Positions 3,934-22,332 are shown, counted from the stretch's first letter. The stretch is 64,000 nucleotides of DNA from an uncultured Acidobacteriota bacterium (GCA_963720545.1 OY970399.1:3904001-3968000); one strand, 5' to 3'. The notes: generated by a model not told the origin, from the sequence alone. Numbers and translations: made by a program.

Positions 3934-4596
3934 TCAGAAGCGCAGGGTGTGGCGCTGCTTGCGCCACTCGATCTCGACCTCGCCGGTGCCGATGCGCAGC
4001 ACCTTGACGTCGCCGATCTCGTCGCCCTCGAAGAAGATCCTGTCGTCGATGAGCGCGATCGGCTTGCCGTCGCGGGAGCTGATCGCCTGGAGGTGCGGCT
4101 CGCCCTTCATGCTCCCCGGCCCTGACGCACGGGGTTCGTTCGCAGCGCCCGATCCGCTGTCCGCCGGCGCCGCGGCTTCCGCAGTGCGTTGCGGGAGCGG
4201 TTCGGGTCGTACCGCCGGCGCCGCGGAGCGCGGCTGCACTTCACGCGGTGACTCGGGAACGTTGGCGGCGGCCGGCGCCGCGGTGCGGAACGTGCTGGGT
4301 GCAACCGGGGGCGGCTCGGCCGGCGCGACTACGGGCGCCGCAACCACCGGCGGCTGTGCCGCGGCGGGCGGCGGGGCGGCGGCTTGCCTCGCCGGTGGCA
4401 CCGAGTTCCTCGACGTCAGGAACGTCGTGCCGAGCCCGCCGAGCGCCACCAGCGCCAGTGCGCCGATCGCCAGCAGCCACACCGGCACCGCCCGCCTGCC
4501 GTCGCGCCACGGCGCTTCACCGGCGGTGATGATCGGCGCCGCGGCGCGGGCCTGCTCGCGCTCCAGCTTCTTCAGGGCTTCCAGGATGAGGCTCAC
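3934..4596 (-). CDS. GspB/ExeB-like protein
   Basis: N-terminus (V/M)SLILEALKKLEREQ, TM helix, Pro/Ala linker, C-terminal LQAIS...ALID...EGDEIG domain; overlaps the stop of the exeA-like gene. Confidence 0.75.
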   Translation of the reverse strand: MSLILEALKKLEREQARAAAPIITAGEAPWRDGRRAVPVWLLAIGALALVALGGLGTTFLTSRNSVPPARQAAAPPPAAAQPPVVAAPVVAPAEPPPVAPSTFRTAAPAAANVPESPREVQPRSAAPAVRPEPLPQRTAEAAAPADSGSGAANEPRASGPGSMKGEPHLQAISSRDGKPIALIDDRIFFEGDEIGDVKVLRIGTGEVEIEWRKQRHTLRF

Positions 4597-6131
4597 GGGC
4601 GCGCTCCTCCAAGTCTCGGCCGCGGGTAGTCGAGCCCGCTGTAGAGCGCCATCAACGTGCGCTGGCCGGGAATGCCGTCGGCCACGAGCGCGGTGTCGCG
4701 CTGGAAGTTCGCCACGTCGTCGGCCAGCAGGCCGGTGCCGCGCCGCCCGAGCCGCGCCAGGGCGCTCGACGCCCAGGGATAGGAGCGCGTGGAGTCGTCG
4801 GCGACGCCGTCGAAGTCGCGCCAGAGAAAGGTCGTCTGTCCCGTCCAGTACCGCTCCAGCACGCCCAGCGGCACGCGCAGGTCGCCCGACTCGAGGCGCA
4901 GCGTTGCGGAACCTCCATCGAGCGCCACCAGCGGCACGAAGCAGGTGGTCTCGGCGTTGGGCGGCGCCAGTTCGAGGATCGCGGGCACGTCGAGGCGGCG
5001 CACCTGGTCCAGCCGGCTCAGCATGGTCAAAGAGCGCAGCGGCGGTCCCGGCGTCCAGGCGGAGCGCACGCTGTTGACGGCGCTGCTCCACGACGCTTCG
5101 CGCTGCGCCGAGGCGAGAAACGCGTCGAGCGGCGGTGTCGGCACGGGAGTGGGCACCGAAGGCGCCGGGGCCGGCGTGGCGGCAGTAGCTTCGAGGCGTT
5201 CGCGCGCCTGCAGGCGCCCGGCGGGCAGCCACAGGTAGGCGGCGATCGCCAGCAGCGCGATGGCGCCGGCGCCCACCGCCCACGGCAGCGCGCGCTTCGG
5301 CATCCACGGCCCGGCGCCGCCGAACACCTCCTGCGCGGAACGATCGACCATGCCGCGGTCGATCTCGCGGGTGCCGCCGACGTAGCCGGCGAGAAGCGCC
5401 CGGTCGCACACCAGGTTGATGAGGCGGGGAATGCCGCCGGAGCGGCGCTGCACGGCGCGCAGCGCGCCGGTCGTGAACGCGACTTTGCCTTCGCCGCCGG
5501 CAACCGCCAGCCGATGCTTCACGTACGCCGACGTGTCGGCGAGGTCGAAAGGCGCCAGGTGGTAGCGCGCGGTGACGCGCTGCGCCAGCTGCCGCAGGTC
5601 GCGCCGCGCGAGCATCTCCTTCAGCTCGGTCTGGCCGATGAGGACGATCTGGATGAGCTTCTCGGTGTCGGTCTCGAGGTTCGAGATGAGCCGCACCTGC
5701 TCCAGCACGTCGCGGGTCAGGCCCTGAGCCTCATCGACCACCAGCACCACGCGCTGGGCGCGGGCGCGCGCGTCGAGGAGGTACCCGTGCAGGGCGTCCA
5801 TGTACGGCTTGGTCGCTCCGCGCTCGGTGTCGCGTGGCGTCGGGACGTGCAGTTCGTTCAGCACCGTCTCCAGCAGCTCGCCGGCGCTCACCGACGGATA
5901 CAGCACCACCGCGGTCGCGGTGCCCGGCTCGAGCTGCGACAGAAAGTAGCGGGCGAGTGTGGTCTTGCCCATGCCCACTTCGCCGGTGACGACCACGAAG
6001 CCGCCCCGTTCCTGGAAACCGAACTCGAGGTGCGCGAAGGCCTCGGCGTGACGGCCGGACAGGTACAGGTATTTCGGGTCCGGCGTGAGGTTGAATGGCT
6101 TCTCGGTGAAGCCGTAAAACGACTCGTACAT
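4593..6131 (-). CDS. ExeA/GspA-like AAA ATPase with TM segment and C-terminal peptidoglycan-binding domain
   Basis: MYESFYGFTEKPFNLTPDP, Walker A GEVGMGKTT, Walker B VVDEAQ, GIPRLINLVCDRALL; C-terminal VANFQRDTALVADGIPGQRT. Confidence 0.9.
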   Translation of the reverse strand: MYESFYGFTEKPFNLTPDPKYLYLSGRHAEAFAHLEFGFQERGGFVVVTGEVGMGKTTLARYFLSQLEPGTATAVVLYPSVSAGELLETVLNELHVPTPRDTERGATKPYMDALHGYLLDARARAQRVVLVVDEAQGLTRDVLEQVRLISNLETDTEKLIQIVLIGQTELKEMLARRDLRQLAQRVTARYHLAPFDLADTSAYVKHRLAVAGGEGKVAFTTGALRAVQRRSGGIPRLINLVCDRALLAGYVGGTREIDRGMVDRSAQEVFGGAGPWMPKRALPWAVGAGAIALLAIAAYLWLPAGRLQARERLEATAATPAPAPSVPTPVPTPPLDAFLASAQREASWSSAVNSVRSAWTPGPPLRSLTMLSRLDQVRRLDVPAILELAPPNAETTCFVPLVALDGGSATLRLESGDLRVPLGVLERYWTGQTTFLWRDFDGVADDSTRSYPWASSALARLGRRGTGLLADDVANFQRDTALVADGIPGQRTLMALYSGLDYPRPRLGGARP

Positions 6132-6178
6132 GGAGATCGTTGACCGTTTCGGAGTGTAGCATCGAAGCTTTGGCGGCC

Positions 6179-6835
6179 ATGGAAGCGACGATCGACGCCG
6201 GTGGTGGGGGCAAGGCGCCCTTTTCGCTCGCGGTGTTCGGCAGCGGCGGACCCGTCCTGGTGCTCGGCCACGGCGCCGGCGGCAACCGCAGGACCCCCTG
6301 GCTCGTGCGCATGGCCGAAACGCTCGGCGGTCGCGGCCGGCGCGTCGTCCTTTACAACTTTCCCTACACCGAAGCCGGTCGGAAGGTGCCCGACAAGCCC
6401 GACGTGCTCGAAGCCGCGATTGCCGCCGCCGCAGAGTGGTGCCGCAGCACACTCGGCGCGGAGAAGTTGGCGCTCGGCGGCAAGTCGATGGGTGGCCGCA
6501 TCGCCTCGCAGGCCGTCGCCAAGGGCCTGCGCTGCGACGCGCTCGTGTTCCTCGGCTATCCGCTGCACCCGCCGGGACAGCCGGACAAGCTGCGCGATGC
6601 ACACCTCGGGGGGATCCCGGTGCCGATGCTGTTCCTGCAGGGAACCCGCGACGCCTTCGCTTCGTGGGACCGGCTCGAGCCGGTGCTGGCGCGCCTGCCG
6701 AAAGCGACGCTCCACAAGGTCGAGGGCGGCGACCATTCGTTCGCGGTGCCGAAGAAGACCGGGCGCACAGCTGCCGCGGTCGAGGCCGAATGCGCCGCGG
6801 CCGTCTCGGACTGGCTCAGCGCGAAGGGACTGTAA
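6179..6835 (+). CDS. Alpha/beta hydrolase (Tex30/KANL3-like family)
   Basis: [33 protein letters not shown]. Confidence 0.85.
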
Positions 6836-8889
6836 AAGCCGCCGCCTCCGCCTGCAGCGCTTCCCACTGCGCCATCAGGTCGTCGATGCCGGCGAGGTGT
6901 TTCTGGCGGTCGGACACCGCCTGGTCGGCGCGGGCGCGGTCGTCGTAAAAGCCCGCCGAAGCCATCAACGACTCGAGGTCGCGGACCGCCTGTTCCTGCA
7001 CAGCGATCTGCTGCTCAAGTTCCTTGAGCCGCGTCGCACGTTTGCGCGCTTCGCGCTCCTGCGCCTGCTTCTCGGCATGCGAGATCGCGCCGCGCAGCCG
7101 CGGCGCCAGCGGGTTGGCGTTCGCGGCGGGGGCAGCAGCGGGCGCCGCTTCCGCCTGCGGCGCAACCGCGTGCTGCCTCGGCCGCTCCCGCTTCTGCACG
7201 CGCGCCGGCGCCTGCGGCCGCGCCGCGGGCGCGGCAACCACGGCCGGCTTCGCGGCAGCGAGCGGCGGCAGGGCGGCGCCCAGTTCGCGCGCCTTCTTCC
7301 AGGCGAGGAAATCTTCGTAGCCGCCGCTGTAGGAGAACGCCTCGCCCCCGCCCACCTCGACCACGCGGTTCGCGAGCTTGTCCACGAAATAGCGGTCGTG
7401 CGAAACGAAGATCAGCGTGCCGGCATAGTCGAGCAGCGCCTCGAGCAGGATCTCCTTCGAGTCGAGGTCGAGATGGTTGGTCGGCTCGTCGAGCACCAGC
7501 AGGTTGCTCGCGGTCAGCAGCATCTTGGCGAGCGCCAGGCGGTTGCGCTCGCCGCCCGAGAGCACGTTCGTTTTCTTGTAAACGTCGTCGCCCGAGAACA
7601 GGAAGCCGCCGAGGATGTGGCGGATCATCGGCACCATCGTCGACGGGCTGGCCGACGACATCTCCTCGTACACCGTGCGCGCCGGGTTCAGGATCTCGGC
7701 CTGGTTCTGCGCGAAGTAGTCGAGCAGCACCTGGTGGCCGACGATGCGCACGCCCGCATCCGGCTGGTCCACACCCGCGAGGATGCGCATCAGGGTCGAC
7801 TTGCCGGCGCCGTTCGGCCCGACGAGCGCCACGCGCTCGCCGCGCTCCACCAGCAGGTCCACGCTGCGCAGCACCACGTTGGCGCCGTACGTGCGGCCCA
7901 CGCGCCTTGGCCTCGAGGACGATGCGCCCCGGACGCGGCGCCTCGGGAAACTTGAAGCGGATCTTCTTGCGCTGCGGCGGGATCTCGATGCGCTCCACCT
8001 TGTCGAGCTGCTTGATGCGGCTCTGCACCTGCTTCGCCTTGGTCGCCTGGTAGCGGAAGCGGTTGATGAACGCCTCGGTCTTCTCGATCTCCTCCGACTG
8101 GCGGCGGTGCGACTCGAGCAGGCGCTCCATGCGCGCGGCGTGCTCGACCACGTACTTCGAGTAGTTGCCGTGATAGTCGGTCAGCGTCTTCAGGCCCACC
8201 TCCGTGACGCGCTTGACGGTCGCGTCCAGGAAGTAGCGGTCGTGCGACACCAGCACCACCGAGCCCGGGTATTCGTTGAGGTAGTCCTCGAGCCAGTTGC
8301 GCGCGGGCAGGTCGAGATGGTTGGTCGGCTCGTCCATCAGCAGCAGGTTGGGGCGCGCCAGCAGCAGCTTGGCGAGAGCGATGCGCATCTGCCAGCCGCC
8401 GGAGAACTCCTCGGTCTTGCGCTCCTGGTCGGCGAGCGTGAAGCCGAGCCCCTTCAGGACGTCGGCGATGCGCGCATCCATCTCGTAGCCACCGAGGTGC
8501 TTGAAGCGCTCGGTGATGTCGGCATAGCGCTCGAGCAGCTTTTCGTGCGCTCCCTCGGCATCCTCGACCGCCAGCTTGTCCTCGATCTCGTGCTGCTCCG
8601 CCTTCAGCGCCAGCAGCTCCGCGAACGCGAGCATCACCTCGGCGTGCACGGTGCGTCCCTTGTGGACGATGCCGTCCTGCGGCAGGTAGCCGATGGTGGT
8701 GTCCGATGCCATGCGAATCTGGCCCGCGTCCGGCTCTTCGAGGCCCGCGAGCATGCGCAGCAGTGTCGTCTTGCCCGAGCCGTTCGGGCCGGACAGGCCG
8801 ATGCGATCGCGCTTCTTCACGTGCCAGGACACGTCCTGGAGGAGCACGCGTTCGCCGTACCGTTTGGTGAGGCCTTCGACGTGGATCAT
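6816..8889 (-). CDS. ABC-F family ATPase with one apparent +1 frameshift near 7903
   Basis: Two ABC domains ([17 protein letters not shown] and [17 protein letters not shown]) in two frames, joined at ...GCC AAG GCG C GTG GGC...; C-terminal coiled coil. Confidence 0.9.
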
Positions 8890-8978
8890 GGTGTGTGCAA
8901 GAGCTCGAACCCCCTATTTTAGGCGATCCGGCCCGGTTCCTTGCAGGGGCGGCCGTTGCGCCGGGATAATGTCCCCCA

Positions 8979-10418
8979 ATGTCATCGGTCACCGTTGAAA
9001 AGTCGTTTGCCGGCCTCGGCCTTAAGGACGCCACCCTCCAAAGCCTCGAAGCCAAGGGTTACAAGACCCCCACCGACGTGCAGTTCGAGACCATCCCGAA
9101 GGCAATCGCCGGCATCGACCTGGTGGTGCAGTCGCGCACCGGCACCGGCAAGACCGCCGCCTTCGGCATCCCGATCGTCGAGAAGGTGGACCTCGCGAAG
9201 GCCGAGCCGCAGGCGCTGGTGCTGGCACCGACGCGCGAGCTCGCCGTGCAGGTGGCGCAGGAAGTGACCGAGCTGGGGCGCGCGGGCAAGATCAAGGTGG
9301 AGGCGGTCTACGGCGGCGATTCGCTCGACCGCCAGATCGAAGGCATCAAGGCGGGGGCGCAGGTCATCGTCGGCACCCCCGGCCGCGTCCTCGACCACCT
9401 GCGCCGGGGCACGCTGGTGTTGAAGGGCCTGCGCATGCTGGTGCTCGACGAAGCCGACCGCATGCTCGACATGGGCTTCGCGCAGGAGATGAGCCAGATC
9501 ATGGAGTACCTGCCGGCGGAGCGGCAGACGCTGCTGTTCTCGGCGACGGTGCCGGTGAGCATCCGCGGGCTCATCTACCACTACCTCACCGACCCCGAGT
9601 GGGTGCTGCTCTCGACCGACCAGGTGTACGTGCGCGAGGTCGAGCACCTCTACGTGCTGACCTCACGCCTGCACAAGGAGGCGACGCTCGAGCGCATCCT
9701 CGAGTACGAGAAGCCGGCCGCCTCGATGATCTTCTGCAACACCAAGGAGGAGACGCGCAACGTCTCGGCGTTCCTCGCCGGCCGCGGCCACCGCGCCGCC
9801 ATGCTCTCGTCGGACCTGACGCAGAAGAAGCGCGAATCGGTGCTGCTCGCGTTCCGCAACGGCAAGGTGCATCACCTCGTCACCACCGACGTCGCCTCGC
9901 GCGGCATCGACATCGAGGACCTGAGCCACGTCTTCATCTTCTCGACGCCCGATTCGCCCGAACAGTACATTCACCGCGCCGGCCGCACCGGGCGGGTGGG
10001 GAAGTCGGGGCGCGCCATCAGCCTGGTCTCGGCCCACGACCTGATGAACTTCAACCGCCAGGTGCGCCGCTACCGCATCGAGGTGCAGGAACTGCAGGCA
10101 CCCTCCGACGACGAGGTGCGCGCGCGCAAGGCGCAGCGCATCGTCGACGACATCGCCGTGGACGCAGCGACGCTGCCGCTCGAGACCTTCTTCGAGCTGT
10201 CGGGGGCCGCGCGCCTGCTGGCGGCACGCGAGGACCGCGACCGGGTGGTCGTGCTGCTGCTCGCGAAATACCTGGCGGCGAACGCGCCGCCGCCCGAACC
10301 GGAAGAGCCGGCCGACGAGGAGCCGCCCTACCGCGCGGGCGACCAGGCGGGCGGACCGCGCCGGCGCTACGGCGGCGGTGGCGGCGGCAGCAGCCGGCGC
10401 CGCGGGCGCGGCCGCTAG
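8979..10418 (+). CDS. DEAD-box RNA helicase
   Basis: Q motif, RTGTGKT, PTRELA, TPGR, DEAD, SAT, HRAGRTGR; Arg/Gly-rich tail. Confidence 0.95.
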   Translation: MSSVTVEKSFAGLGLKDATLQSLEAKGYKTPTDVQFETIPKAIAGIDLVVQSRTGTGKTAAFGIPIVEKVDLAKAEPQALVLAPTRELAVQVAQEVTELGRAGKIKVEAVYGGDSLDRQIEGIKAGAQVIVGTPGRVLDHLRRGTLVLKGLRMLVLDEADRMLDMGFAQEMSQIMEYLPAERQTLLFSATVPVSIRGLIYHYLTDPEWVLLSTDQVYVREVEHLYVLTSRLHKEATLERILEYEKPAASMIFCNTKEETRNVSAFLAGRGHRAAMLSSDLTQKKRESVLLAFRNGKVHHLVTTDVASRGIDIEDLSHVFIFSTPDSPEQYIHRAGRTGRVGKSGRAISLVSAHDLMNFNRQVRRYRIEVQELQAPSDDEVRARKAQRIVDDIAVDAATLPLETFFELSGAARLLAAREDRDRVVVLLLAKYLAANAPPPEPEEPADEEPPYRAGDQAGGPRRRYGGGGGGSSRRRGRGR

Positions 10419-11112: not shown

Positions 11113-12129
11113 ATGCGCGCGAGCCGGCTGCTCTCGATACTGGTGCTCCTGCAGCTGCGGGCGCGGTTGACGGCCGAGGCCCTCGCCGCGGAGTTCGAGG
11201 TTTCGGTGCGCACCATCTACCGCGACATCGAGGAGCTCGGCGCAGCCGGAATCCCGGTCTACGGAGACCGCGGCCCGGGCGGCGGCTTCCAGCTGCTCGA
11301 CGGATGGCAGACCCGCCTCACCGGCCTGGCGCGCGACGAGGCGGAGGCGCTCTTCATGATCGGCATGCCGGGGCCGGCCGCGGCCCTCGGCCTCGGTTCG
11401 GCGGCGGCCGCGGCGCGCAACAAGCTGCTCGCGGCGCTGCCCCAGGCGTGGACCGGCGGCGCCCTGCGCATCGCGGCGCGCTTCCACCTCGACCCCGTCG
11501 ACTGGTACCGCGCCGCGGAGGCGGCCGGGCACCTGCCGCGCGTGGCGCGCGCGGTGCTCGATGAGCGGCGCATCCGCTTCTCGTACGAGAGCTGGAGGGG
11601 GCAGAGGCTGCGGGTGGTCGAGCCGCTCGGCCTGGTGCTGAAGGCCGGTGCCTGGTACCTCGTCGCCGGCAGCGGCGCTTCGGTCCGCACCTACAAGGTG
11701 GCGAACATCCGCAAGCTCGCCGTGCTCGGCGCCACCCAGGCGTTCGTGCGCCCGGCCGGCTTCGACCTCGCCGTGCACTGGGCCGAGTCGCTGCGGCAGT
11801 TCGAGGCCGCGCTGCGCCCGGAGGTCGCGGTCCTGCGCGCATCGCCGCAGGGCCGCGTGCGCCTCGCGCGCCTCGGTGCCTGGGCTGCGGCGGCCGTGAA
11901 GGCGGCATCGCCTCTGCGCGGCGCGCGCGGGCTGATGCGGGTGCGACTGCCGATCGAGAACGTCGAGGACGCGGCCCTCCTGCTGCTCGGCATCGGGCCA
12001 CAGGTCGAGGTGGAGGCGCCCAGGGCGCTGCGCGAGCGCCTGGCGCAGCTCGCCGCGGAGATCGTGAGGAAGGCTGGCCCGCGCGCGCACACGAGGCGCA
12101 CGCGGGCTGGCGCTTACGGGAGCCGCTAG
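11113..12129 (+). CDS. YafY-like HTH-WYL-WCX transcriptional regulator
   Basis: MRASRLLSIL...FEVSVRTIYRDIEEL...GPGGGF wHTH; VEPLGLVLKAGAWYLVA WYL domain. Confidence 0.93.
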   Translation: MRASRLLSILVLLQLRARLTAEALAAEFEVSVRTIYRDIEELGAAGIPVYGDRGPGGGFQLLDGWQTRLTGLARDEAEALFMIGMPGPAAALGLGSAAAAARNKLLAALPQAWTGGALRIAARFHLDPVDWYRAAEAAGHLPRVARAVLDERRIRFSYESWRGQRLRVVEPLGLVLKAGAWYLVAGSGASVRTYKVANIRKLAVLGATQAFVRPAGFDLAVHWAESLRQFEAALRPEVAVLRASPQGRVRLARLGAWAAAAVKAASPLRGARGLMRVRLPIENVEDAALLLLGIGPQVEVEAPRALRERLAQLAAEIVRKAGPRAHTRRTRAGAYGSR

Positions 12130-15100
12130 AAGCTGATCAGCAGGCCGAGCATGAACTTGCTGAACGCGAGGTCGGGCGAGGCGGTGATCGCCCGGTTGTA
12201 GTCGTAGGCGGCCTCGAACGAGAAGCGCTTGCCGGCCGGCAGGTTGACGCCCACGCCGACGTTGAAGCCGGCCTCGAAGCTGCCGGGGTCGAAGTGGTAG
12301 AGGTCGGGGCCGAGGTTCACGAACAGCCGCAACGGGTCGCCGGGGTTGAACGTGTACTTCGCGTTCGCGCCGAGGCGCCACACCTTGAAGTCGGCGGCCG
12401 AGTTGACGCCGTCGAAGCGCGCGCGGCCGAGCCGCAGGTCGAAGGCGAGCTTGGCAGAGACGTTGTTGACGAAGTCGAGGTCGAGCGTCGAGCCGGTGCC
12501 GGCAACGTTGCCGAACGCGCCGTGGGCGTCGACGAGCCCCGCGTGGATGCTGAATGCCGGTGGCGTGCGCGCGGTCAGGGTGCGCGTCACGAGCGGAGTG
12601 TCGGGGTCGTTGCTCGCCACCTGAAGTTGGCACGACTTCGGCCCGGGAAGCTGCGGGGTGAACTCGATCGTCAGGTCGGTGCAGGCGGCCGGCGCCAGCG
12701 TCTTCGGCAGTGGATTGCCGCTGAGCGTGAAGTCGGCGCAGTCGATGGCTGCGCTGGTGACGGTGAGCGGGCACTGGCCCACGTTGCACGCGGTGACCGT
12801 GCGCTCGCCGGGGCTCCATGCCGACACCACGCCGAACGCAGTTGATCCGGTGACTGCGATGTCCTTCTCGGTGCCGCTGCCGCTCGCGGTGACCGCGACG
12901 GCCGGCGTCTCGGGATCGTTGCTCGAGATCGTGAGGGTTGCGGTTTGCGGGCCCTGCGCCGTCGGCGCGAATGACGCCTTGAACGGGAAGCAGGCGCTGG
13001 GAGCGACAGTTACGGGATATCCCGCCGACGGCGCCAGCACGGAGAACTGCGGGTTCGACGAGGCGATGCCGCTGACGATGAGGTCGGCCGAGCCGGTGTT
13101 GCAAACGTTGAGGTCGGCCAGCGCGCTGCTCGCAAGGCATTGCGGCGCGAAGGCGACACCCCCCGGCACCTGGATGGCAGGCGCCGACACGCGCGCGGTC
13201 GCCACCACCGCGAAACCCTGTCCCGGTGCGCCGACGTTCACGGCCGCGCCGCCCACGCGGATCGTCCAGGTGCCGGTCTGCGGAGCGTTCACCACCACCT
13301 GCTCGACGTTGTTCAGGTTGTCCGGCGCGCCGCCCGGAGTCGACTGGCCGGCGGCGAACGCGTTGCCGCGGAACGTCGTCGCATCGGGTGCCGTCACCGT
13401 GAGGTCGAGATCGTTGACACGCGGCGCCGCGGCGCCGGCGGTGCCCGGCGGGTCGCTCCACGCGAGCGTTATCCGCAGTGGCTCGGTGCTCGCCGCCACC
13501 TCGATCGTGAACGCCTGGAACTCGCCGGTGGCGACGCCGTCGGCGTTGCGCACGTCCCACGAACGCAGGCGCCGCGGCGCGCCGGAGAAGAACAGCACGT
13601 TGTTGAGCCGCGCGATGCCCCAGCCTTCGGTGACGCTTGGATAGCCGGTCTCGCCGGCCATGTCGAGGGTGCCGTTCAGCAGCGTCGCCTTCAGCAGGGC
13701 CCCGGTGGGGGTGCGCGCATCCTGCGGCCGCGCCGTGCCGGTGGGGTACCAGCCTTCGGTGTAGTACTGACGGATCAGCGCCACGGTCGCCGAGGCGGCC
13801 GGCGTCGCCCAGCTGGTCGCACACACGTTGGGGCTGCCGGGCCACGTCTGTACGCCGCAGCCGCTGGCGGCGATCGCCGAGGTGATGGCGCAGCCCGGAG
13901 TGACCACGTCGGGCTTGCGGCGGCCGTCGGCGGTGGGCCCGGGATTGCCGTCGCCCACCGTGCCTTCGTTGGGATCGCGCAGCGAAGCGTTCACGCCGAC
14001 CGAGTCCTTCGCAGTGCCGGGCGGTCCCTGCTCCTCGCCGTTGTTGCCCATGGAGCCGAGCACCAGGTGGTCCTCGTTGTTCCACATGAAGGTGTCCACG
14101 TCTTCGGCGGTCTGGTTGTAGGTCGCCGGGTTGCCGGCGCCGGCGGTGTTGTCGTGCCAGCTGTTCGAGTGGATGCGTGCGCCGAGGCCGGCATTGTTGT
14201 TGAGGGTGTTGAGCAGCACGCCGCCGTTGGTAGCCGAGACCAGGCGCGCGGCCCAGGCGTTGCCGCGGTTCAGGCCGGTGCCGGGATTGTTGAAGTCGTC
14301 GCCGGCAAGTATTCCCGCGACGAAGGTGGCATGCGCGGTGGCGGTGCCGCCGGCGACCGCCAGCATCTTGCGGTGCAGCGGGCCGGCCGCCGGGTTCGCC
14401 GGGTCGTTGAACATGCAGTGCGCGATGTCCACCGGGCCGCCGTCGATCACCGCGGCCACCTGGCCTTCGCCATGCAGCCCGCGGTTCCAGACGGGCGTGG
14501 TGCCCGGGGTGCCCGACTGGATGGTGCCGGCAGTGTTGCCGTTGTCCTCGATGCGCTCGGCGACCTCCTCGATGAAGCGCACTGCCTCGAGGCGCGCCAC
14601 CGCCGGCAGCGACTCGCGCGTGGCCAGGTGGAACTCGACGCGCGGCGCGCCGTGCTGCTGGCGCAGGTCCCAGGCCTGCACTTCGCTGGCGCCGGGCAAC
14701 GCACGGATCGCGGCTGCCACGGGCGCGGGATCGGCATCGGCGAACAGGATCGCGCGCAGCAGCAGGCCAGGGGCGGCGCGCCGCTCGGGGCTGCGCAGCG
14801 GCACGCGGCCGATGCGCGGCGAGATCTTGTAAGCCGGCTGCCAGGCAGCCACTGCGCGCACCAGCGGCGAGCGGCGCAGCGCGGCGAGCTGCGCCTGCGG
14901 CACGCGCTCCAGGTACGCAAGGTTCGGGATGTAGCGGTCGAGCGCGAGGCCGAACTCCTTCGTCAGGGCGGCGCGCTGTGCGCGCGTCAGCGGCGCCTTC
15001 ACCTGCACCAGGAAATGTTCGGTTGCAGAATCGGCGACGCGCAGTCCTTCCGCGACGCGGGCGGGCCCGCGCAGCGGATCGAACGCGCCGGTTTCCAGCA

Positions 15101-15224
15101 CGATGCGCATGTCCTGCGCCGGTTGCACTCCTTGCGCAGCCGCGGGACACGGCAGGATCGTGAGAAGGAGGAGGGCTAGTGAAACTGCCGCGGCAAGGCG
15201 GCGTGTGAACCTTCGAGACACCAT
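12126..15224 (-). CDS. Secreted KP-43-type S8 subtilase with PPC-like domain, two Ig-like (ASH/choice-of-anchor D-like) domains and a C-terminal outer-membrane beta-barrel
   Basis: Signal peptide and prodomain; GLHGEGQVAAVID, HATFVAGILAG, IHSNSW, GNNG, KPDVVTPG, ATSWATP; LAWSDPPG...VNDLDL...NNVEQV; amphipathic strands ending GLLISF. Confidence 0.85.
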   Translation of the reverse strand: MVSRRFTRRLAAAVSLALLLLTILPCPAAAQGVQPAQDMRIVLETGAFDPLRGPARVAEGLRVADSATEHFLVQVKAPLTRAQRAALTKEFGLALDRYIPNLAYLERVPQAQLAALRRSPLVRAVAAWQPAYKISPRIGRVPLRSPERRAAPGLLLRAILFADADPAPVAAAIRALPGASEVQAWDLRQQHGAPRVEFHLATRESLPAVARLEAVRFIEEVAERIEDNGNTAGTIQSGTPGTTPVWNRGLHGEGQVAAVIDGGPVDIAHCMFNDPANPAAGPLHRKMLAVAGGTATAHATFVAGILAGDDFNNPGTGLNRGNAWAARLVSATNGGVLLNTLNNNAGLGARIHSNSWHDNTAGAGNPATYNQTAEDVDTFMWNNEDHLVLGSMGNNGEEQGPPGTAKDSVGVNASLRDPNEGTVGDGNPGPTADGRRKPDVVTPGCAITSAIAASGCGVQTWPGSPNVCATSWATPAASATVALIRQYYTEGWYPTGTARPQDARTPTGALLKATLLNGTLDMAGETGYPSVTEGWGIARLNNVLFFSGAPRRLRSWDVRNADGVATGEFQAFTIEVAASTEPLRITLAWSDPPGTAGAAAPRVNDLDLTVTAPDATTFRGNAFAAGQSTPGGAPDNLNNVEQVVVNAPQTGTWTIRVGGAAVNVGAPGQGFAVVATARVSAPAIQVPGGVAFAPQCLASSALADLNVCNTGSADLIVSGIASSNPQFSVLAPSAGYPVTVAPSACFPFKASFAPTAQGPQTATLTISSNDPETPAVAVTASGSGTEKDIAVTGSTAFGVVSAWSPGERTVTACNVGQCPLTVTSAAIDCADFTLSGNPLPKTLAPAACTDLTIEFTPQLPGPKSCQLQVASNDPDTPLVTRTLTARTPPAFSIHAGLVDAHGAFGNVAGTGSTLDLDFVNNVSAKLAFDLRLGRARFDGVNSAADFKVWRLGANAKYTFNPGDPLRLFVNLGPDLYHFDPGSFEAGFNVGVGVNLPAGKRFSFEAAYDYNRAITASPDLAFSKFMLGLLISF

Positions 15225-15315: not shown

Positions 15316-16366
15316 TCAGGCGCGGCCGGGCACGGCGGTCGCGGCGCGCCGCAGCCACCGGTCGAAGAACCAGTTGCCGATGCGGCACTTGCCGAGCGCC
15401 GTGACGATGTAGCCCATGCGCTCGAGGCCATAGAGGAGCGAGTCGATGCGCTCCGGACCGCCGAGGCTGCTGGTGAGGGTCGTGATCGTCACCTCGCCCT
15501 CGCGCGCGATCGTCAGCAGCATCTCGCGCTCGTCCTTGCCGAGCGTCTGGAAGTCGACCGCGAAGAAGTTCGCGACCATTTCGTCGGCGGCCACCTGCGA
15601 CAGGGTCGCGCCGAGGTCGCGGCTCTCGAACAGGCGGCTCGCGATGAGCTGCACCAGGAACGGGTTGCAGCCGGTGCGGTCGATGATGGTGGCGCGCTCG
15701 TCGCCGGTGAAGTTGCCGCGCGCCAGCAGCTCGCCGGTCTCCTCGGGGGTCAAGCGGCGTCAGGTAGACGGGCGGGATGAAGCCTTGCAGGAACGGGGAA
15801 GTGGCGAAGCTCGTGGTCTCGTCGATCATCGCGAGCCTCTTGGTGGAGGTGAGCACCGAGCGCAGGTCGGGGCCCTTTTGCAGGATGCGCCGCAGCCGCG
15901 CCAGCACCACCGGCGCCTGTTCGGCGACCGTCAGCAGCTCCTCCGCCTCGTCCACCAGCAGCAGCATGCGCCAGCCGCTCTTGACGGTGCGGCGCGCCAG
16001 CGTCGTGAGCATGTCGGGCACCGTGAGGCCCTCGAGCTGGTCGATCTCGACGTCGGTGGCGCGGCGGAACGGGTCGCTGTCCTCGACGCTCTCCAGCAGG
16101 CTGTCGGCCAGCCCGCGGGCGTCGCCGCTGCCCTGCAGGTCCCAGTAGAGCGGCGCGTAGGGGGTCTGCGGATTCTGCAGCACCCGGTACTCGAGCTCCT
16201 TCAGGAGGCTGGTCTTGCCGAGGCGGCGTGCACCCACCACCCACAGCGAGTCGCGTTCGCCGTCGAGGATCTGGCGCACCAGGGAGCCGCGGCCGAAGAA
16301 GTTCTCGCCGCGCACCCAGCTGCCGGCGACGTACGGATTGCGCGCTTCGCTCACCACGCTGCCCAT
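15316..16366 (-). CDS. Soluble P-loop ATPase (AAA+/STAND-like) with C-terminal winged helix; apparent +1 frameshift near 15751
   Basis: NPYVAGSWVRGENFFGR, Walker A GARRLGKTS, Walker B LLVDEAE, TGCNPFLVQ; frames join at CCG CTT G ACC CCC. Confidence 0.8.
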
Positions 16367-16370
16367 TCTC

Positions 16371-18829
16371 TCAGGAGACCGCTTGTGCGGCGCTGCCCCC
16401 CGCTTCGTCGGGGGCATCGCCTTCGCGCCCCTCTTCGTAGACGAAGGCTTCGCCGGCCGCTGCGATGTCGGCCGCGGTGACGGTCGAGCGGCCCTCCTCG
16501 AGCATGCGGTTGACCGCATGGATGCACAGCCGCTGGATCGCGTACGGCTTCATGCCGCTGATCCGCAGCACCGCCTCCACCGCGTCGCCCTGGTAGCGGA
16601 AGATGCCCTGGACCGGCTCGCGGATCAGCCCCTCGGCCTCTTCGCGCGAGAACTCCTTCAGCTCGATCTCGTCGAAGAAGTTGTACCAGGGGCTGCCTTC
16701 GCTCTTCCAGTTGCGGCGGATGCCGACGCCGCTCATCACCGCCACCAGGTGCTCGGAGAAGGTCTTCATGAAGATGCTGCGCAGCCGCTGGTTGACGCGG
16801 TCGGAGTACTCGTTCAGCACGTCCACCTCGTCGATGAGCAGCGCCAGCTTGACCTTCTTGGCGGTGCGTCCCTTCAGGTCCTCGATGACGCGCTGCAGGT
16901 CGTGCGCAGAAGTCGCGGCCGTCGTAGTCGTCGTCGTCGGGGCCGAACTTGCAGCGCCGCCATGGCCTCGGGCGAGGGCACCGTGGTCTCGACCACGTCG
17001 GCCATCACGGTGTGGAAGAACGCGGCTTCGGGAACGCCCTGCAGGTCGGAGGCGACCGGGAAGAAGCGGTAGTCGTCGCGGTCGTCCTTCTCGAGCGCCT
17101 TCTTCAGGTGGTGCAGCAGGCTGGTCTTGCCGATGCGTCGCTCGCCCGTGATCATCAGGCTGTTGTGGTGCAGGACGTTGAGGATCCGTGTCAGCAGCTT
17201 CTGCCGGCCGAAGAACATGTCGTCGGCGAGCACCGGCGCGCCGGCGATGTAGGGGTTGAAGCGCCGGTTGACCGCGCGCCGCCGTCGCACGCGCTGCATC
17301 GCGAAGCCGGCGCCGACGAGACCGAGGGCGGTGAGCGCCGCCGCCGGCAGGAAGGCGCGCGTCTCGTAAAAGCGCAGCTGCCGCGTGATGGTGAACGGCT
17401 GCGAGGCGCGCAGCCCCTGGGCGTCGGTCGCGACGATCAGCAACTCGTTGGCGCCGGGCGCCAGCGGGAAGGTGCTGTTGATCGCCTGGGTGCGGGCCGG
17501 CTCGCCGTCTTCGACCGCGGTCGGCCGCAGGTCGGCGACCAGCGCCTGGTTGAGGTAGATCTCGACGCGCGAGAGTTGCCGCTCGTCGCTGACCACCGCC
17601 TCCACCTTGACCGTCGGCTGGTCCACCTTCGGCTGCGGCACCGACGGCGCCATCATGACGATGAGCGGCATGCGGTTGGGGAAGAAGCGCGCCAGCAGCG
17701 AGGCCGCCGTCAGCTCCAGCGAGCGCTCGCGGCGCTGCGCGGCGCGTGCGTTCTGCGGGTCGAGGCGCAGGATTTCCTCGTAGCGCAGCTCGGCCTCGGG
17801 ATGCCTGCCGCTCGTGAACAGGGCATCCGCTTCCGACTCGAGACGGCTGATCTCCGCGCGGCGATCGGTCTCGACGCGCAGGCTGTTGACCCGGTCCTCG
17901 GCCTGGGCGCGCAGGCGGCGCGCTTCGGCGTTCCCGGGATCGGCGGCCGCCTCGGTGAGCGGGCGCAGCGCGTCGGCGAACTGCCCCGCGGCGAACAGGC
18001 GCTTGCCTTCCTCGAACTTGCCGGCGAGCTCCGCCTTCGAAGTGGTTTGCCGCAGCTGCTCCTGCGCGGCGGCGATGCCTTCCTGCGCCTCGCGGTTGAC
18101 GGCGTCGAGCGACAGCACCTCGGTGAACTTGAGGATGGCGTCGGTCTCGTTGCCGGCGCGCACCGCCGCCTTCGCCTCGTCGAGCGCCGTCTGCAGGCGC
18201 CGCGCGCGGGTCTGACGCTCAGCGGCCATGCGGCGCTCCTCGAGCAGGTCGTTCTTGCGCTTCTCGATCGACGGGATGAGCGCGGGGTTGATCTTCTGGT
18301 AGATCGACTCCGCCTTGGTCCAGGCGGCGAGCGCCTCGTCGTCGCGGCCGGCGCGGCGCTTGTCGTCGCCTTCCTTCAGGAAGCGCTCGGCTTCGTCGCG
18401 CGCGGCGCGGATCTGGTTCTGCTCGCTTTGCGACTTCACCTCGGCCTGGCGCGCCTGCAGCTTCTGCCACAACTCGGCGCGCTTCTTGATGATGCCCTGT
18501 GTTTCCTCGGAGCCGAACATCGCCACCGCGCGGTCGTTGTCGCCGCGCTCCAGGTAGCAAAGGCCGAGGTAGTAGTAGGGCGTGTAGTCGACGAAGTCGA
18601 CGCCGTAGGTGCGCACGCTCAGCTCCGAGCGCGGCCGCAGTTCCACGGCCTTCTGCAGGTCGGCGAGCGCCGCGGGGGTGCACTGGCCGGCGCGGAAGTT
18701 GCGGCCGCGGTCGTCGATGGCGCGCTGGTAGTAGACGTACCACTCGTCGGCCGCGCGCGCCGGGACGGCGCGCAGGCCGAGGTGGGTGGCGACCAGGAGG
18801 CAGGCGGCGACAATACGTCCGGACGGCAT
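16371..18829 (-). CDS. Transmembrane protein: signal peptide, TPR repeats, Ig-like domain, TM helix, cytoplasmic P-loop ATPase; two apparent +1 frameshifts near 16951 and 16908
   Basis: PYYYLGLCY and other TPR-like helices; LAPGANELLIVATD Ig domain; TM helix then RRRR; NPYIAGAPV...FFGR, GERRIGKTS; corrected frame gives LLIDEVD and SGMKPYAIQ. Confidence 0.8.
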
Positions 18830-18864
18830 GCTGCGGACCTTACGCCCCTGCGCTGCCGCCCGTG

Positions 18865-19926
18865 CTACTTCTCGTACATCGCGGCAATCAGGGCCCCGCG
18901 CGCGGTGGCGGTGAGGGGATCCTTGGCGAGACGCACGCCGGCGATCTCGATGGGCAGCGGCCTGGCCTTCATGGTGCGCTCGAACAGCTCCTTGAAGCCC
19001 TTGGCCTTGGCGGTGCCGCCGGAAAGCACGATCGGCAGCGGCCGGTCGGTGCGCGGCAGCTTGTCGGTCGCGGCCAGCGACTTGCGCAGCGAGTCGACCA
19101 GCGCGTCGACCAGATCCTCGTAGTAGATGTTGAGGGCCTTCTCGATCTTGTCCTTGCCGGGACGGCCGAGGTCGAGCCCCTCTTCCTTCGCCATCTTCAC
19201 CCGCGTCGCCGACTCGGCAACCACCGCACCCACCGAGGCGTCGATCGAATCGCCGCCCTTCTGGAGGCTGTACATGATGGCCGGGATCGACAGGAAGGCG
19301 AGGGCGACGTTGCACATGCCACCGCCGCAGGAGATGCCGATGCCGCTGAAGTTGTTGTCCTCGAGTTCGCTGAAGACGACTGCCAGGCCCTCGTTGACCG
19401 CAACCGCGCGGTAACCGAGGCCGTCGAAGTACTTGCGCAGCGTGGCCTCGTGGTAGGTGAGCTCGCTCTCACGGCCGTCGGGCGCCGCGGGCACCGAGAA
19501 CGCCAGCACGTCGCCCTGGCCCTTGGCCTTCGGCACCACGTTCTGCACGATCACGTCGAGCACCTGCATCGCCGACTTCTCGCGCGCGTTCAGCAGGCCG
19601 AAGGCCATGGGCCGGCGGCTCTCCGCGCCGAACATGTTGGCGAACTTGTCGGTGGCGTCGCCGTAGACGACGATCTCCTCGCCGTCGCGGTAGTAGGGAA
19701 TGTTCTGCTGGCCGAGGATCGTCTCGGTGAAGCGCGAATACGGCACCTGGATGAACGCGTTCAATTGCGCCACCGTCTCGACCCCGTTGCCGCGCTTGCG
19801 GGCGGCGACGATGCGGCTCGTTCCGACATCGACGCCTTGGGGACTGCTACCCTTCTGGGCTTCCTCGTTCATCCGCTCCTCCGCATCGGGTTGCACCTTC
19901 CACAACTGATCCTTGCGTTCTTCCAT
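18865..19926 (-). CDS. Actin-fold ATPase, volactin-like
   Basis: Phosphate-1 GVDVGTSRI, connect-1 NEGLAVVFSEL, phosphate-2 GISCGGGMCNV, adenosine IVLSGGTA, connect-2 DPLTATARGALIAA. Confidence 0.85.
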   Translation of the reverse strand: MEERKDQLWKVQPDAEERMNEEAQKGSSPQGVDVGTSRIVAARKRGNGVETVAQLNAFIQVPYSRFTETILGQQNIPYYRDGEEIVVYGDATDKFANMFGAESRRPMAFGLLNAREKSAMQVLDVIVQNVVPKAKGQGDVLAFSVPAAPDGRESELTYHEATLRKYFDGLGYRAVAVNEGLAVVFSELEDNNFSGIGISCGGGMCNVALAFLSIPAIMYSLQKGGDSIDASVGAVVAESATRVKMAKEEGLDLGRPGKDKIEKALNIYYEDLVDALVDSLRKSLAATDKLPRTDRPLPIVLSGGTAKAKGFKELFERTMKARPLPIEIAGVRLAKDPLTATARGALIAAMYEK

Positions 19927-19936
19927 TATCTAGGGC

Positions 19937-21262
19937 CTAGCCTCCGCTGGCGACGTCAACCTCGTCCTTCCGGGCCGAGACTTCCTGCGCTCCGGCCTTC
20001 GTCTGCTCCAGAATCCACCGGTCGTACATCGCGCGCTTGCGCAGGCGCAGCGCCTCGATGCTCTCGCCCGTCTGGCGGGCTTCCGCGACCAGCGCCTGCT
20101 CGGCGCTCGCGACGCCCGGCCACGGCTCGCCCTGCATCTTCGCCAGGAACTCGTCGTCGTAGTGGAAGCCGAACTCCAGCACCGCCGGCGACGGCACGTC
20201 GTAGGCGTTCGGCAGGCCGAACGCGCCGAACGGAAAGCCGCGCGCCCAGTCGACGTGGTGGCCGATGAGGTGCTCACGCGAGTTGACGCTCGTCAGGCCG
20301 TGCGTGACGCACATCTGCGGCGCGATCTCGTAGCGCAAGCGCAGATGCTCCGTGAGAGCGAGTCCCGATGCAAGCTGGGCCTGGGTGATGGGCAGCGCGC
20401 GCCCGCCCTCCCAGCGCGTCTCGAAGCACACGCCGATGAAGGCGCTGTTGAGGTTGAGGAAAGTGGTGTCGCCGTCCTTCCACACGGAAAAGCCCGCGTG
20501 GTTGGCGCGGCCGTTCTCCTCGACGATGCGGTAGACGCGGCCGAAGCGGTCGATGACGTAGTTGTAGAGCCGGCGCCTGGCGATGTACTTCATCAGGCCG
20601 TGCGAGCTCTTCTTGAGGTTGTCGTTGAACGATTCCTCGAGCGGCCAGATGTCGCTTTCCGAGGTGTGAAACAGGATGCCGACAGGCCTGGTGTAGGTCT
20701 CGCGCTGCATCCCGGTGCGGCGGAACACGCGGTATCGGCGCTCGGGGCCGGCCACGGCGAAATTGGTCTCGATGCGCAGGCCGTTGCTGTACTGCTCGAA
20801 GTTCGCGCCGCGCTCCACCAGCCAGATGCTCTTCGGCGCGGGCGCGGACGAGGCCGGCATCGGTTCGGCGACAGGATCGAGACGCGGCGCGCCTGCCAGC
20901 ACGGGCGCCGCGGCGCGGGCCGCGCGCGCGTCGCGCGTGCTCCAGCGGGCCGCCGCGAACAAGGAAGCCGCGAGCAGCGCGCCGACCACGGCGAAGCCGA
21001 GCCAGGCGGGACGGTGCCGCTTCGTCTTCCTGGCGACCGCGCGGCTCAGGCTGGAGTGGCCGAGCAACGGATCCACCGAGTCGTAGCCGAGCATGCGCTG
21101 CGCCATGCGGTGCACGCCGGGGATGGGGATGAGGCGCAGCAGGCGGTCGGTGCGGCGGTAGCGGGAGATCGACCCGCGCAGGTGGCGCAGCTTGGCCACC
21201 GGATCGGCAATGACCTCGGTTTCGCGCTCGAGCGCGCGCAGCAGCGGCTCGCCTGTGTTCAC
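19937..21262 (-). CDS. Membrane-anchored N-acetylmuramoyl-L-alanine amidase (Amidase_2/PGRP-like)
   Basis: Single TM helix, then GILFHTSES, YNYVIDRFGRVY, RANHAG, NSAFIGVCFE, ITQAQ, VTHG, HVD. Confidence 0.82.
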   Translation of the reverse strand: MNTGEPLLRALERETEVIADPVAKLRHLRGSISRYRRTDRLLRLIPIPGVHRMAQRMLGYDSVDPLLGHSSLSRAVARKTKRHRPAWLGFAVVGALLAASLFAAARWSTRDARAARAAAPVLAGAPRLDPVAEPMPASSAPAPKSIWLVERGANFEQYSNGLRIETNFAVAGPERRYRVFRRTGMQRETYTRPVGILFHTSESDIWPLEESFNDNLKKSSHGLMKYIARRRLYNYVIDRFGRVYRIVEENGRANHAGFSVWKDGDTTFLNLNSAFIGVCFETRWEGGRALPITQAQLASGLALTEHLRLRYEIAPQMCVTHGLTSVNSREHLIGHHVDWARGFPFGAFGLPNAYDVPSPAVLEFGFHYDDEFLAKMQGEPWPGVASAEQALVAEARQTGESIEALRLRKRAMYDRWILEQTKAGAQEVSARKDEVDVASGG

Positions 21263-21372
21263 GGACTCCTAAATCCTTTGTGGCCTGCGAATTATAGGAC
21301 ACGAATTTCGGACCCGGCAATGCTTTCGCGAAGCCGATGTGCGCTGGATCCGCCGCCGGGCCCATTGTATGG

Positions 21373-22332
21373 TTGCGAATCGCCACCATTGTCCCAAATG
21401 CGCAGCTGGCGCGGCTTCCGAGGGATCCCCGCGCCTTGCGGCCGCTCATCGAGGAGGAGTCGCAGGCCTGGGCGGCCGATCTCGACTGGGACTATGCCGA
21501 CGTGGCCCGGGCACTCCTCGCCGGGCTCGAGAACGGCTCGCTGCGCGGCTTCGGCTTCGAGGACTCGGGCAGGGTGGTCGCCTACGGTTACTACCTGCTC
21601 GACGGCCGGCGGGCGGTGCTGGGGTCGCTGTTCGCCTCGGCCGCCCATCGCGGGCGCGGCTACGAGGCGACACTCGTGGACGCCCTGGTGGCCGACGCGC
21701 GCGGCGCCGCGCACGGCCGCCGCATCGAGTGCCAGACGCTTTTCACCAGCGACCAGGCGGTGGACGAGCGGTTCCGCGCGCTCGGCTTCACGAGCCACGA
21801 CCGGCACTATCTCGCCGCATCGCTGCTGGCGGGAGAGGTGCTCGCCGCGCCGGCGATCGCCGGCGCGCGCGGCCTGACGCTTGGCGACATCCCGCAGGCG
21901 GCCGCCGTCATCCACAGCAGCCATCAGGGCACCGTGGACGCCGAGATGAACACCACCTACAAGACCGAGAACCATTGCCGCACTTTCCTCGAGACGTTGA
22001 TCCTGCGTTCGGGCTGCGGCGAATTCGACGCCGAGGCTTCGCTGTTCGTCGAAGGCGCGCCCGGCACAGGTCCGGTCGCTGTGCTGCTCGCGAGCCGCCT
22101 GTCGCGAGACAACGGCCACATCTGCCAGGTGTCGGTGGTGCCGCAGGCGCAGCGCAAGGGTCTCGGCCGCGCGCTCGTGAGCCACGCGCTCGGCGTGTTC
22201 CGCGCGCGCGGCCTGCGGCAGGCGACGCTCAGCGCGACGGTCGCGAACGCGCGCGCCTACGCCCTCTACCGCGACCTCGGCTTCGCGCCGCGGCGCCTCT
22301 TCAAGGCGCACGCGTGGCAAGCGCCCGCATGA
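21373..22332 (+). CDS. Tandem GNAT-family acetyltransferase (start uncertain)
   Basis: AHRGRGY and VSVVPQAQRKGLGRAL acetyl-CoA motifs; NARAYALYRDLGF. Confidence 0.8.
   Translation: MRIATIVPNAQLARLPRDPRALRPLIEEESQAWAADLDWDYADVARALLAGLENGSLRGFGFEDSGRVVAYGYYLLDGRRAVLGSLFASAAHRGRGYEATLVDALVADARGAAHGRRIECQTLFTSDQAVDERFRALGFTSHDRHYLAASLLAGEVLAAPAIAGARGLTLGDIPQAAAVIHSSHQGTVDAEMNTTYKTENHCRTFLETLILRSGCGEFDAEASLFVEGAPGTGPVAVLLASRLSRDNGHICQVSVVPQAQRKGLGRALVSHALGVFRARGLRQATLSATVANARAYALYRDLGFAPRRLFKAHAWQAPA

Follow-up and report, generated by a model that had tools for sequence, protein, structure and literature searches.

Actins of bacteria have known parts in wall synthesis, which MreB guides, in the anchoring of the division ring (FtsA) and in the transport of plasmids or organelles (ParM, MamK). 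In Bacillus subtilis, MreBH is reported to govern the localisation of the hydrolase LytE (review, PMC6403190). In the archaeon Haloferax volcanii, the actin volactin is encoded next to a CdpA-like membrane protein, and a pull-down of CdpA enriched volactin (PMC12126565). Here we describe a 64,000-nucleotide stretch of DNA from an uncultured Acidobacteriota bacterium (GCA_963720545.1 OY970399.1:3904001-3968000; the window, meaning the whole stretch), in which four consecutive genes between positions 15,316 and 21,262 encode a membrane-spanning amidase (g1), a volactin-family actin (g2) and two STAND-like ATPases (g3 and g4). The best reading of the comparative evidence is that the amidase-actin pair is the core of a putative system and that the ATPase pair is an accessory specific to the window's order.

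The amidase-actin pair

The window covers 3.90-3.97 Mb of a genome that is assembled as one contig (4.09 Mb, G+C content about 70%) and whose nearest named relatives are Vicinamibacteria, a class of Acidobacteriota. A preliminary description, made from the sequence of the window, had proposed four co-oriented genes separated by gaps of only 10, 35 and 4 nucleotides, the first encoding an amidase with a zinc-amidase domain, one transmembrane helix and a cytoplasmic head of about 85 residues, and the second a volactin-like actin. Each of these points is borne out: the junction DNA gives exactly those gaps between g1, g2, g3 and g4, all on the minus strand, and the two proteins have the expected domains. 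A Shine-Dalgarno-like GGAGG lies within the 3′ end of g1. The features of the pair are as follows.

19937..21262, minus strand: g1, amidase of 441 residues (Pfam Amidase_2, AlphaFold, Foldseek, 44-sequence alignment)
21176..21211, minus strand: head motif of g1, residues 18-29, I-A-D-P-V-A-K-L-R-H-L-R, candidate actin docking site
20939..21010, minus strand: transmembrane helix of g1, residues 85-108, the sole 19-residue window with a Kyte-Doolittle mean of at least 1.6
20243..20686, minus strand: Amidase_2 catalytic core of g1, residues 193-340, with H199, E281, H321, H336 and D338
18865..19926, minus strand: g2, volactin-family actin of 353 residues (Pfam PF25216)
19816-19830, minus strand: g2 phosphate-1 motif DVGTS, intact
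19309-19338, minus strand: g2 phosphate-2 motif GISCGGGMCN, intact
19009-19026, minus strand: g2 adenosine motif LSGGTA, intact

The g1 protein matches Pfam Amidase_2 (PF01510) at 55.5 bits against a cut-off of 26 (E 9.8e-15). It consists of a cytoplasmic helical head of 84 residues, followed by the membrane helix, a linker, the Amidase_2 domain and a conserved C-terminal extension. The AlphaFold model (mean predicted local distance difference test score, pLDDT, 86.4) places four helices in the head (residues 2-82) and then a long helix (84-112); a disordered linker leads on to a small beta-rich region, which is followed by the amidase core and the extension, here helical. The five core residues listed above are invariant across an alignment of 44 orthologues from two phyla (alignment A1), and in an alignment with E. 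coli AmiD, E281 and H321 fall on its ELENR and VAHA stretches. We take the invariant residues to be the zinc ligands (His, His, Asp/Cys) and the catalytic Glu or general base described in the literature on AmpD, AmiD and T7 lysozyme, the positions of the first His and the Asp ligand being assigned by conservation and not by structural overlay. The top matches of a Foldseek search with the model were AmpD (E 1.2e-7), AmpDh2 and AmiD; against the NCBIfam AmpD equivalog model NF008758, g1 scores 29.5 bits, below the cut-off of 143. Because the catalytic residues are invariant and the fold matches AmpD and AmiD, g1 looks like an active enzyme, a predicted amidase. No match in NCBIfam, PADLOC or PHROGs puts a name to the g1 or the g2 protein.

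The g2 protein scores 269.5 bits against the Volactin profile, whose cut-off is 35, and covers positions 3-321 of its 321; the profile exceeded its cut-off in only one of 14 control genomes. Residues D33, G35, T36, S37, G197, G201, G203, G303 and G304 are invariant in the actin alignment (A2). The structural model (pLDDT 88.4, predicted template-modelling score 0.85) is disordered over residues 1-25, and in Foldseek it matched MreB, MamK and BeeR with template-modelling scores of 0.6-0.74 at 13-20% identity. With invariant nucleotide motifs and a fold that matches these three actins, g2, too, looks active. Its scores against other actin models fall below their cut-offs (MreB_Mbl, 16.9 bits against 27; the NCBIfam MamK and salactin models NF040964 and NF053533, 33.7 and 27.3 bits against 400 each), and a sequence search of solved structures with an actin profile found only MamK (E 1e-4). 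The protein begins with a short conserved acidic-basic peptide (window 19897-19926), M-E/D-E-R-K-D-H-L-W-K-V in Vicinamibacteria and M-D-D-R-N-D in Gammaproteobacteria, followed by a variable linker that is disordered in the model.

The canonical genes for MreB, MreC and RodA form a cluster at 2.27 Mb, with that for FtsW at 2.36 Mb; each is over 1.5 Mb away from the window, and g2 is an extra actin besides the canonical MreB of the genome. The earlier remark that mreC, mreD, pbp2 and rodA are missing from the neighbourhood is thus right for mreC and rodA; pbp2 and mreD were not searched for. The genome also has two Amidase_3 genes elsewhere.

Within the window's order the actin is present in 39 of 41 genomes, the two that lack it being 63% and 84% complete. 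Twenty loci of the order were compared with about 8 kb of flank on each side. All four genes are contiguous and co-oriented in 15 of them, and one locus ends too early to judge; in the remaining four, which belong to one genus, amidase and actin are kept together and the ATPase pair lies on the opposite strand beyond a GNAT gene, within about 3 kb. With a wider set of 80 loci (one genome per species) and seven from a survey of the phylum, 102 loci in all had enough upstream flank. The amidase is directly upstream of the actin on the same strand in 95 of the 102, divergent in one and missing in six, distributed as follows (loci with the amidase upstream of the actin, out of those compared).

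Window's order: 20/20
Further Vicinamibacteria-like loci: 25/25
Gammaproteobacteria (Steroidobacter, Peristeroidobacter, Povalibacter, metagenome-assembled genomes (MAGs) labelled Lysobacterales): 23/23
Blastocatellia: 16/19
Other Acidobacteriota families (phylum survey): 5/7
Unclassified Acidobacteriota: 3/4
MAGs labelled Clostridia or Heliobacteriaceae: 3/4

The gap between the two genes is mostly 4-5 nucleotides in the window's order and in the Gammaproteobacteria. The adjacency of amidase and actin, one of the two on which the preliminary description had staked its proposal, is therefore conserved in two phyla. The four genes taken together do not form one conserved system: the ATPase pair stands beside the actin in the window's order and was found in none of the loci outside it (Gammaproteobacteria, Blastocatellia and other Acidobacteriota). 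A g4 query returned nothing in four of five Steroidobacter or Blastocatellia genomes that carry the amidase-actin pair, and in the fifth only a match of 24% identity.

Co-occurrence extends to whole genomes. In a sample of 301 Acidobacteriota genomes, scored with an E value of at most 5e-69 for a strong actin match and at most 1e-30 for the amidase (five best candidates per genome), ten had a strong actin match; nine of these ten also had the amidase, which occurred in none of the other 291. The trees of the two proteins agree: in both, the gammaproteobacterial group is monophyletic (Shimodaira-Hasegawa-like approximate likelihood ratio test, SH-aLRT, 100) and groups with Vicinamibacteria (97 and 96) to the exclusion of Blastocatellia. 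Few relatives of Steroidobacter have the actin, which exceeds the cut-off in two of 81 genomes of that genus's order and three of 41 of its family. The matching trees and this patchiness would fit inheritance and transfer of the pair as a unit, the midpoint root giving no direction of transfer.

The head of g1 is variable apart from residues 17-30 (I-x-D-P-V-x-K-L-R-F-L-R), a stretch with an invariant P21 and an L25 shared by 98% of the 44 sequences. The mean share of the majority residue is 0.61 over this motif, 0.68 over the catalytic core and 0.33 over the transmembrane helix and linker; the motif is thus conserved about as well as the catalytic core, which fits a filament working through the head. 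It is retained even in two loci (L051 and L057) where the head is shortened to about 40 residues. An exhaustive search with the whole amidase gave 200 family representatives at an E value of at most 1e-30, and among the best 150 of these 200, which were inspected for the motif, 83 carry the pattern in their first 250 residues, where an estimated 0.001 or so per protein would be expected by chance. In these 83 the motif typically lies 20-50 residues from the start, and a hydrophobic 19-mer follows it in 70. A search of the ESM Atlas with residues 1-112 of g1 gave no usable match. A constant cytoplasmic motif on a periplasmic enzyme needs a cytoplasmic partner, and the actin is put forward as that partner because it is the only gene that always accompanies the motif-bearing amidase. 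The motif is probably the site at which the actin docks.

The ATPase genes and the surroundings of the cluster

The two remaining genes of the cluster, and the breaks in their reading frames, are located as follows.

16371..18829, minus strand: g3, trans-envelope TPR / STAND-like ATPase, broken (matches to TPR_2, AAA_16, ATPase_2 and nSTAND; hydropathy)
18749-18829, minus strand: signal-like hydrophobic N-terminus of g3 (hydropathy)
17297-17356, minus strand: transmembrane helix of g3, residues 492-511 (hydropathy)
17123-17146, minus strand: g3 Walker A
16821-16841, minus strand: g3 Walker B
16905..16951, minus strand: two 1-nucleotide insertions in g3, frame -1 to frame 0 to frame -3
15316..16366, minus strand: g4, soluble paralogous STAND-like ATPase, broken (AAA_22, nSTAND1)
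16211-16234, minus strand: g4 Walker A
15941-15964, minus strand: g4 Walker B
15752..15758, minus strand: frame break in g4, which fits one extra C in a run of five

The preliminary description of g3 and g4 as related P-loop ATPases, one of them membrane-spanning, is correct: they are 39-45% identical across the P-loop region, and a transmembrane segment is found only in g3. That protein runs from a signal-like N-terminus through a periplasmic TPR/coiled-coil region and the transmembrane segment to the P-loop domain. Of the TPR/Ig architecture once ascribed to it, Pfam matches uphold the TPR part, whereas the Ig part has only a weak counterpart (Big_7, E 0.004) in one homologue. The C-terminal domain of g4, about 145 residues, is without any family match. 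Against AAA_22 (cut-off 27), g4 scores 32.6 bits and three of the four intact homologues scanned score 27.8-30.1 bits; the matches to nSTAND1 (26.7 bits for g4), nSTAND2, AAA_16 and ATPase_2 are all below their cut-offs. In PADLOC, the ATPases gave only short P-loop matches (E 2e-5 to 7e-3).

The same description presented g3 and g4 as intact genes, and neither is a single open frame here; in relatives each is a single open reading frame (ORF), of 795-812 residues for g3 and 341-346 for g4. Comparison of homologues by tblastn keeps g3 in frame -1 as far as position 16952, and frame -3 takes over at 16904. The intervening 14 codons read KFGPDDDDYDGRDF in the middle frame, where a relative has RFRPEDKGYDGRDF; since this middle frame is still homologue-like, two separate 1-nucleotide insertions are indicated. 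The g4 pieces lie in frames -1 and -2, and one C less in the run of five restores PLDPEETGELL. As a control, 172 ORFs of at least 300 residues from 400 kb of a relative (G016) were compared with the window genome, giving 68 orthologue-like matches over 31,457 aligned residues. Only one of the 68 was split over frames, in a comparison blind to breaks near gene ends. That gene (G000:C1:4023088-4024111, outside the window) possibly carries another frame break.

Three breaks in about 3.5 kb, set against one split gene in 68, do not reflect the general error level of the genome, and general assembly noise is accordingly an unlikely cause. Programmed frameshifting is also unlikely, given two +1 shifts 45 nucleotides apart in g3 and plain ORFs in the relatives. 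The breaks would mean either that both ATPase genes have recently decayed or that the consensus is locally wrong; as the sequence stands, g3 and g4 appear to be disabled in the window genome. At three related loci (L049 in genome G025, L050 in G012, and L058), the actin or g3 is likewise split over frames in assemblies of few contigs, in what looks like the indel errors of long-read assembly. Frame breaks in this cluster should therefore not be counted as decay unless reads bear them out.

Three further features flank the four genes.

21291..21320, minus strand: promoter-like site directly upstream of g1, TTGCCG, 18-nucleotide spacer, TATAAT (sigma-70-like consensus match only)
21337..22332, plus strand: two-domain GNAT acetyltransferase, divergent from g1 (Pfam Acetyltransf_1, E 3.6e-21)
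12126-15224, minus strand: S8 subtilase of 1032 residues, co-oriented and directly downstream of the cluster

The promoter-like site agrees with the consensus at 10 of 12 positions, and two such sites were found compared with a mean of 0.3 in shuffled sequences. A homologue of the GNAT gene lies within a few kilobases of the amidase in 17 of the 20 loci of the window's order, and in one genus it is placed between the amidase and the ATPase pair; scores against curated NCBIfam models were all below cut-off. It is a loosely conserved neighbour in the order and at most a candidate member of the system. Besides PPC and HYDIN/ASH-type Ig domains, the subtilase has an outer-membrane beta-barrel at its C-terminus; it is not kept beside the cluster in relatives.

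A possible mechanism and its rivals

Considered together, the genes suggest a two-gene envelope module in which g1 would be a zinc amidase of the inner membrane whose catalytic domain lies in the periplasm, and g2 a cytoplasmic actin. On this model g2 would polymerise on ATP in the cytoplasm and the filament would dock on the conserved head helix of g1 (D-P-V-x-K-L-R-F-L-R). Docking would gather the amidase, place it or switch it on, such that stem peptides are cut from peptidoglycan at sites selected from within the cell, the likeliest site being the septum during the separation of daughter cells. The preliminary description had also named budding and shape change among the possible roles. 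The STAND-like ATPases would then be an order-specific accessory layer, one of them spanning the envelope with a periplasmic TPR region, and may act as sensors or regulators. We regard it as likely that the amidase and the actin work together. More specifically, and with only modest confidence, we favour docking of the filament on the head helix as the way in which the amidase is placed or regulated, the septum being the probable site.

A hint of where the amidase may act comes from its neighbours. Peptide-free glycan, which amidases leave behind at the septum, is what SPOR domains bind. In 11 loci, mostly of Blastocatellia, a protein with a SPOR domain is encoded just upstream of the amidase, the domain being confirmed by Pfam in one of them; such neighbours would point to the septum and to cell separation. 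The loci are L055 (4837-6075), L052, L056, L101, L103, L119, L122, L123, L133, L134 and L135. In the SPOR-amidase-actin array, the SPOR protein has a zinc-ribbon-like start, a long Pro/Gln-rich linker, one membrane segment and the SPOR domain at its C-terminus.

Other neighbours hint at DNA, and with them a different account of the pair has to be considered. In nine related loci the actin carries an N-terminal HU domain (by tblastn; Pfam Bac_DNA_binding or HU-HIG in five of them), which would be expected if the amidase-fold protein were a peptidoglycan anchor for the tips of a filament whose job is intracellular, in the positioning or segregation of the nucleoid or in its coupling to the closing septum; amidase activity would then be secondary, serving for example to seat the anchor. 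The HU domain is attached through a low-complexity linker (L055:7548-8981; L099:7557-8969; L104:7626-8969; L107:7647-8969; L127:7743-9014; and further loci L056, L110, L130 and L135), and genes of haem synthesis (a cytochrome c assembly protein and glutamyl-tRNA reductase) lie downstream of HU-actins. Proteins that join HU to a transmembrane segment and SPOR or LysM have been proposed as analogous tethers between DNA and wall (Burroughs et al. 2017, PMC5499826, in the part used here), although a search of its main text by terms gave no mention of an actin fusion. Two findings given in PMC10869688 would also suit a filament anchored at the wall: volactin filaments are dynamic and reach the membrane with their tips, and salactin, a related actin, has a part in the partitioning of DNA. 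Nevertheless, an HU domain is lacking from the actins of the window and of most loci, whose N-terminus is made up of 25-30 disordered residues; no gene for a centromere-binding adaptor is conserved beside the pair; and the strict conservation of the catalytic residues favours an enzymatic role over mere anchoring. We consider a wall-anchored filament for DNA the main rival, though an unlikely one.

The remaining alternatives turn on the ATPases and on the origin of the genes. If g3 senses the periplasm and, with g4, controls the assembly of the actin and hence the amidase, all four genes would be needed as one signalling machine, much as the preliminary description had proposed. The close packing of the four genes in 15 of the 20 loci of the order, the proximity of the ATPases in four more and the gaps of only 35 and 4 nucleotides before g3 and g4 speak for such a machine, but the ATPases are absent from loci outside the order and g4 is without a match in four of five whole genomes, one genus has the pair on the other strand past another gene, and in the window it is the ATPases that carry three frame breaks while amidase and actin are intact. 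An obligate four-gene machine seems quite improbable on these grounds. That the genes are unrelated neighbours, or the remnant of a prophage or defence system in which an endolysin-type amidase and a phage-type actin have been left side by side, would account for the weak matches of the amidase domain to PHROGs endolysins (E 1e-6). It sits badly with the presence of the pair in nearly all genomes of the order and its stable chromosomal setting, with the lack of any PADLOC match for either protein and of any PHROGs match for the actin, and with the 84-residue head, the genome-wide co-occurrence and the matching trees, none of which is expected of chance neighbours; we judge it very improbable indeed.

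Returning to the docking of the actin filament on the amidase head, several observations weigh against it or soften the comparisons behind it. Five of the nine HU-actin loci have no adjacent amidase, and DNA rather than the wall may be the main business of the filament; in favour of the pairing, however, all five genomes with an HU-fused actin and a non-adjacent amidase encode a full-length orthologue of the amidase elsewhere (E 1e-138 to 1e-145). One genome, G228 (locus L054, G228:C4:21687-38652, at about 4391-10221), has the actin without the amidase. Its cluster encodes a volactin-type actin, a second actin-like protein (MreB-like_C), three family-less ORFs and a ParA/MinD-like ATPase, followed by FeoB, and may be a different actin system. 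The window itself has no SPOR neighbour. The set compared includes at least eight loci whose contigs occur in it twice, and related genomes are not independent samples; both trees were quick maximum-likelihood searches with a midpoint root.

The fullest form of the proposal is that the pair is a third bacterial actin machine for the wall, next to the MreB elongasome and the FtsA divisome, in which the filament grips a helix of the amidase so that polymer dynamics reach a hydrolase without an adaptor, that the HU and SPOR lineages tie the nucleoid to septal splitting, and that the cassette moved from Acidobacteriota to Steroidobacteraceae. We put this forward tentatively, as possible rather than probable. 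Were it true, the HU and SPOR lineages would have a built-in check between chromosome clearance and cell separation. Literature searches returned no description of a bacterial volactin-amidase pair, nor of a chromosomal actin dedicated to a membrane-crossing wall hydrolase. The pair occurs almost throughout a group of soil bacteria that is abundant and little understood, and is also present in cultured strains of Steroidobacter and Peristeroidobacter, in which genetics and microscopy are possible now. It would carry the volactin family beyond archaea into bacteria and give it a defined partner, and the HU fusions offer a handle on a possible link of cell separation to the chromosome.

Comparison with known systems

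The closest enzymes, AmiD, AmpDh2 and AmpD, are lipoproteins or cytoplasmic. With them g1 shares its fold and conserved active-site positions; what sets it apart is the cytoplasmic head and the transmembrane helix, together with a conserved extension some 100 residues long. Control of periplasmic amidases from the cytoplasm has a precedent in FtsEX-EnvC-AmiA/B, where nucleotide-driven cytoplasmic machinery controls the enzymes for cell separation. There, however, Amidase_3 enzymes are activated by way of a LytM factor, whereas the pair described here has another family of amidase and a proposed direct coupling to actin. ParM/ParR, MamK and salactin are, as is proposed for g2, actins with a dedicated and adjacently encoded partner, although the loci examined here contain neither a centromere nor an adaptor gene, and showed no genes for magnetosomes.

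Volactin itself (VolA, HVO_2015) belongs to the same Pfam family as g2, by profile match, and its gene likewise adjoins that of a membrane protein having a cytoplasmic part, the CdpA-like HVO_2016; according to PMC12126565, pull-down links volactin to proteins of the division ring. It differs in being archaeal, from cells without peptidoglycan, and in its known role, a change of shape from rod to disk; its neighbour is a four-helix CdpA-like protein, while that of g2 is a single-pass Amidase_2 protein. The HU-CCDC81 tethers, as presented in the part of PMC5499826 cited above, resemble the combination of HU-actin, wall-binding amidase and SPOR protein found in relatives of the window, in that binding to DNA and to peptidoglycan are joined across the membrane. 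The link proposed here would differ in being split over two or three proteins and in passing through an actin filament.

A functional parallel would be the MreB elongasome (MreB-RodZ-MreCD-RodA/PBP2) together with MreBH-LytE, in which an actin-fold filament beneath the membrane steers wall enzymes; the fold of g2 is itself MreB-like. The two are nevertheless distinct, since g2 fails the MreB_Mbl cut-off and the MreB-MreC-RodA genes of the genome are elsewhere. The g1 hydrolase, moreover, is predicted to span the membrane itself, so that no RodZ-type adaptor would be needed between filament and enzyme.

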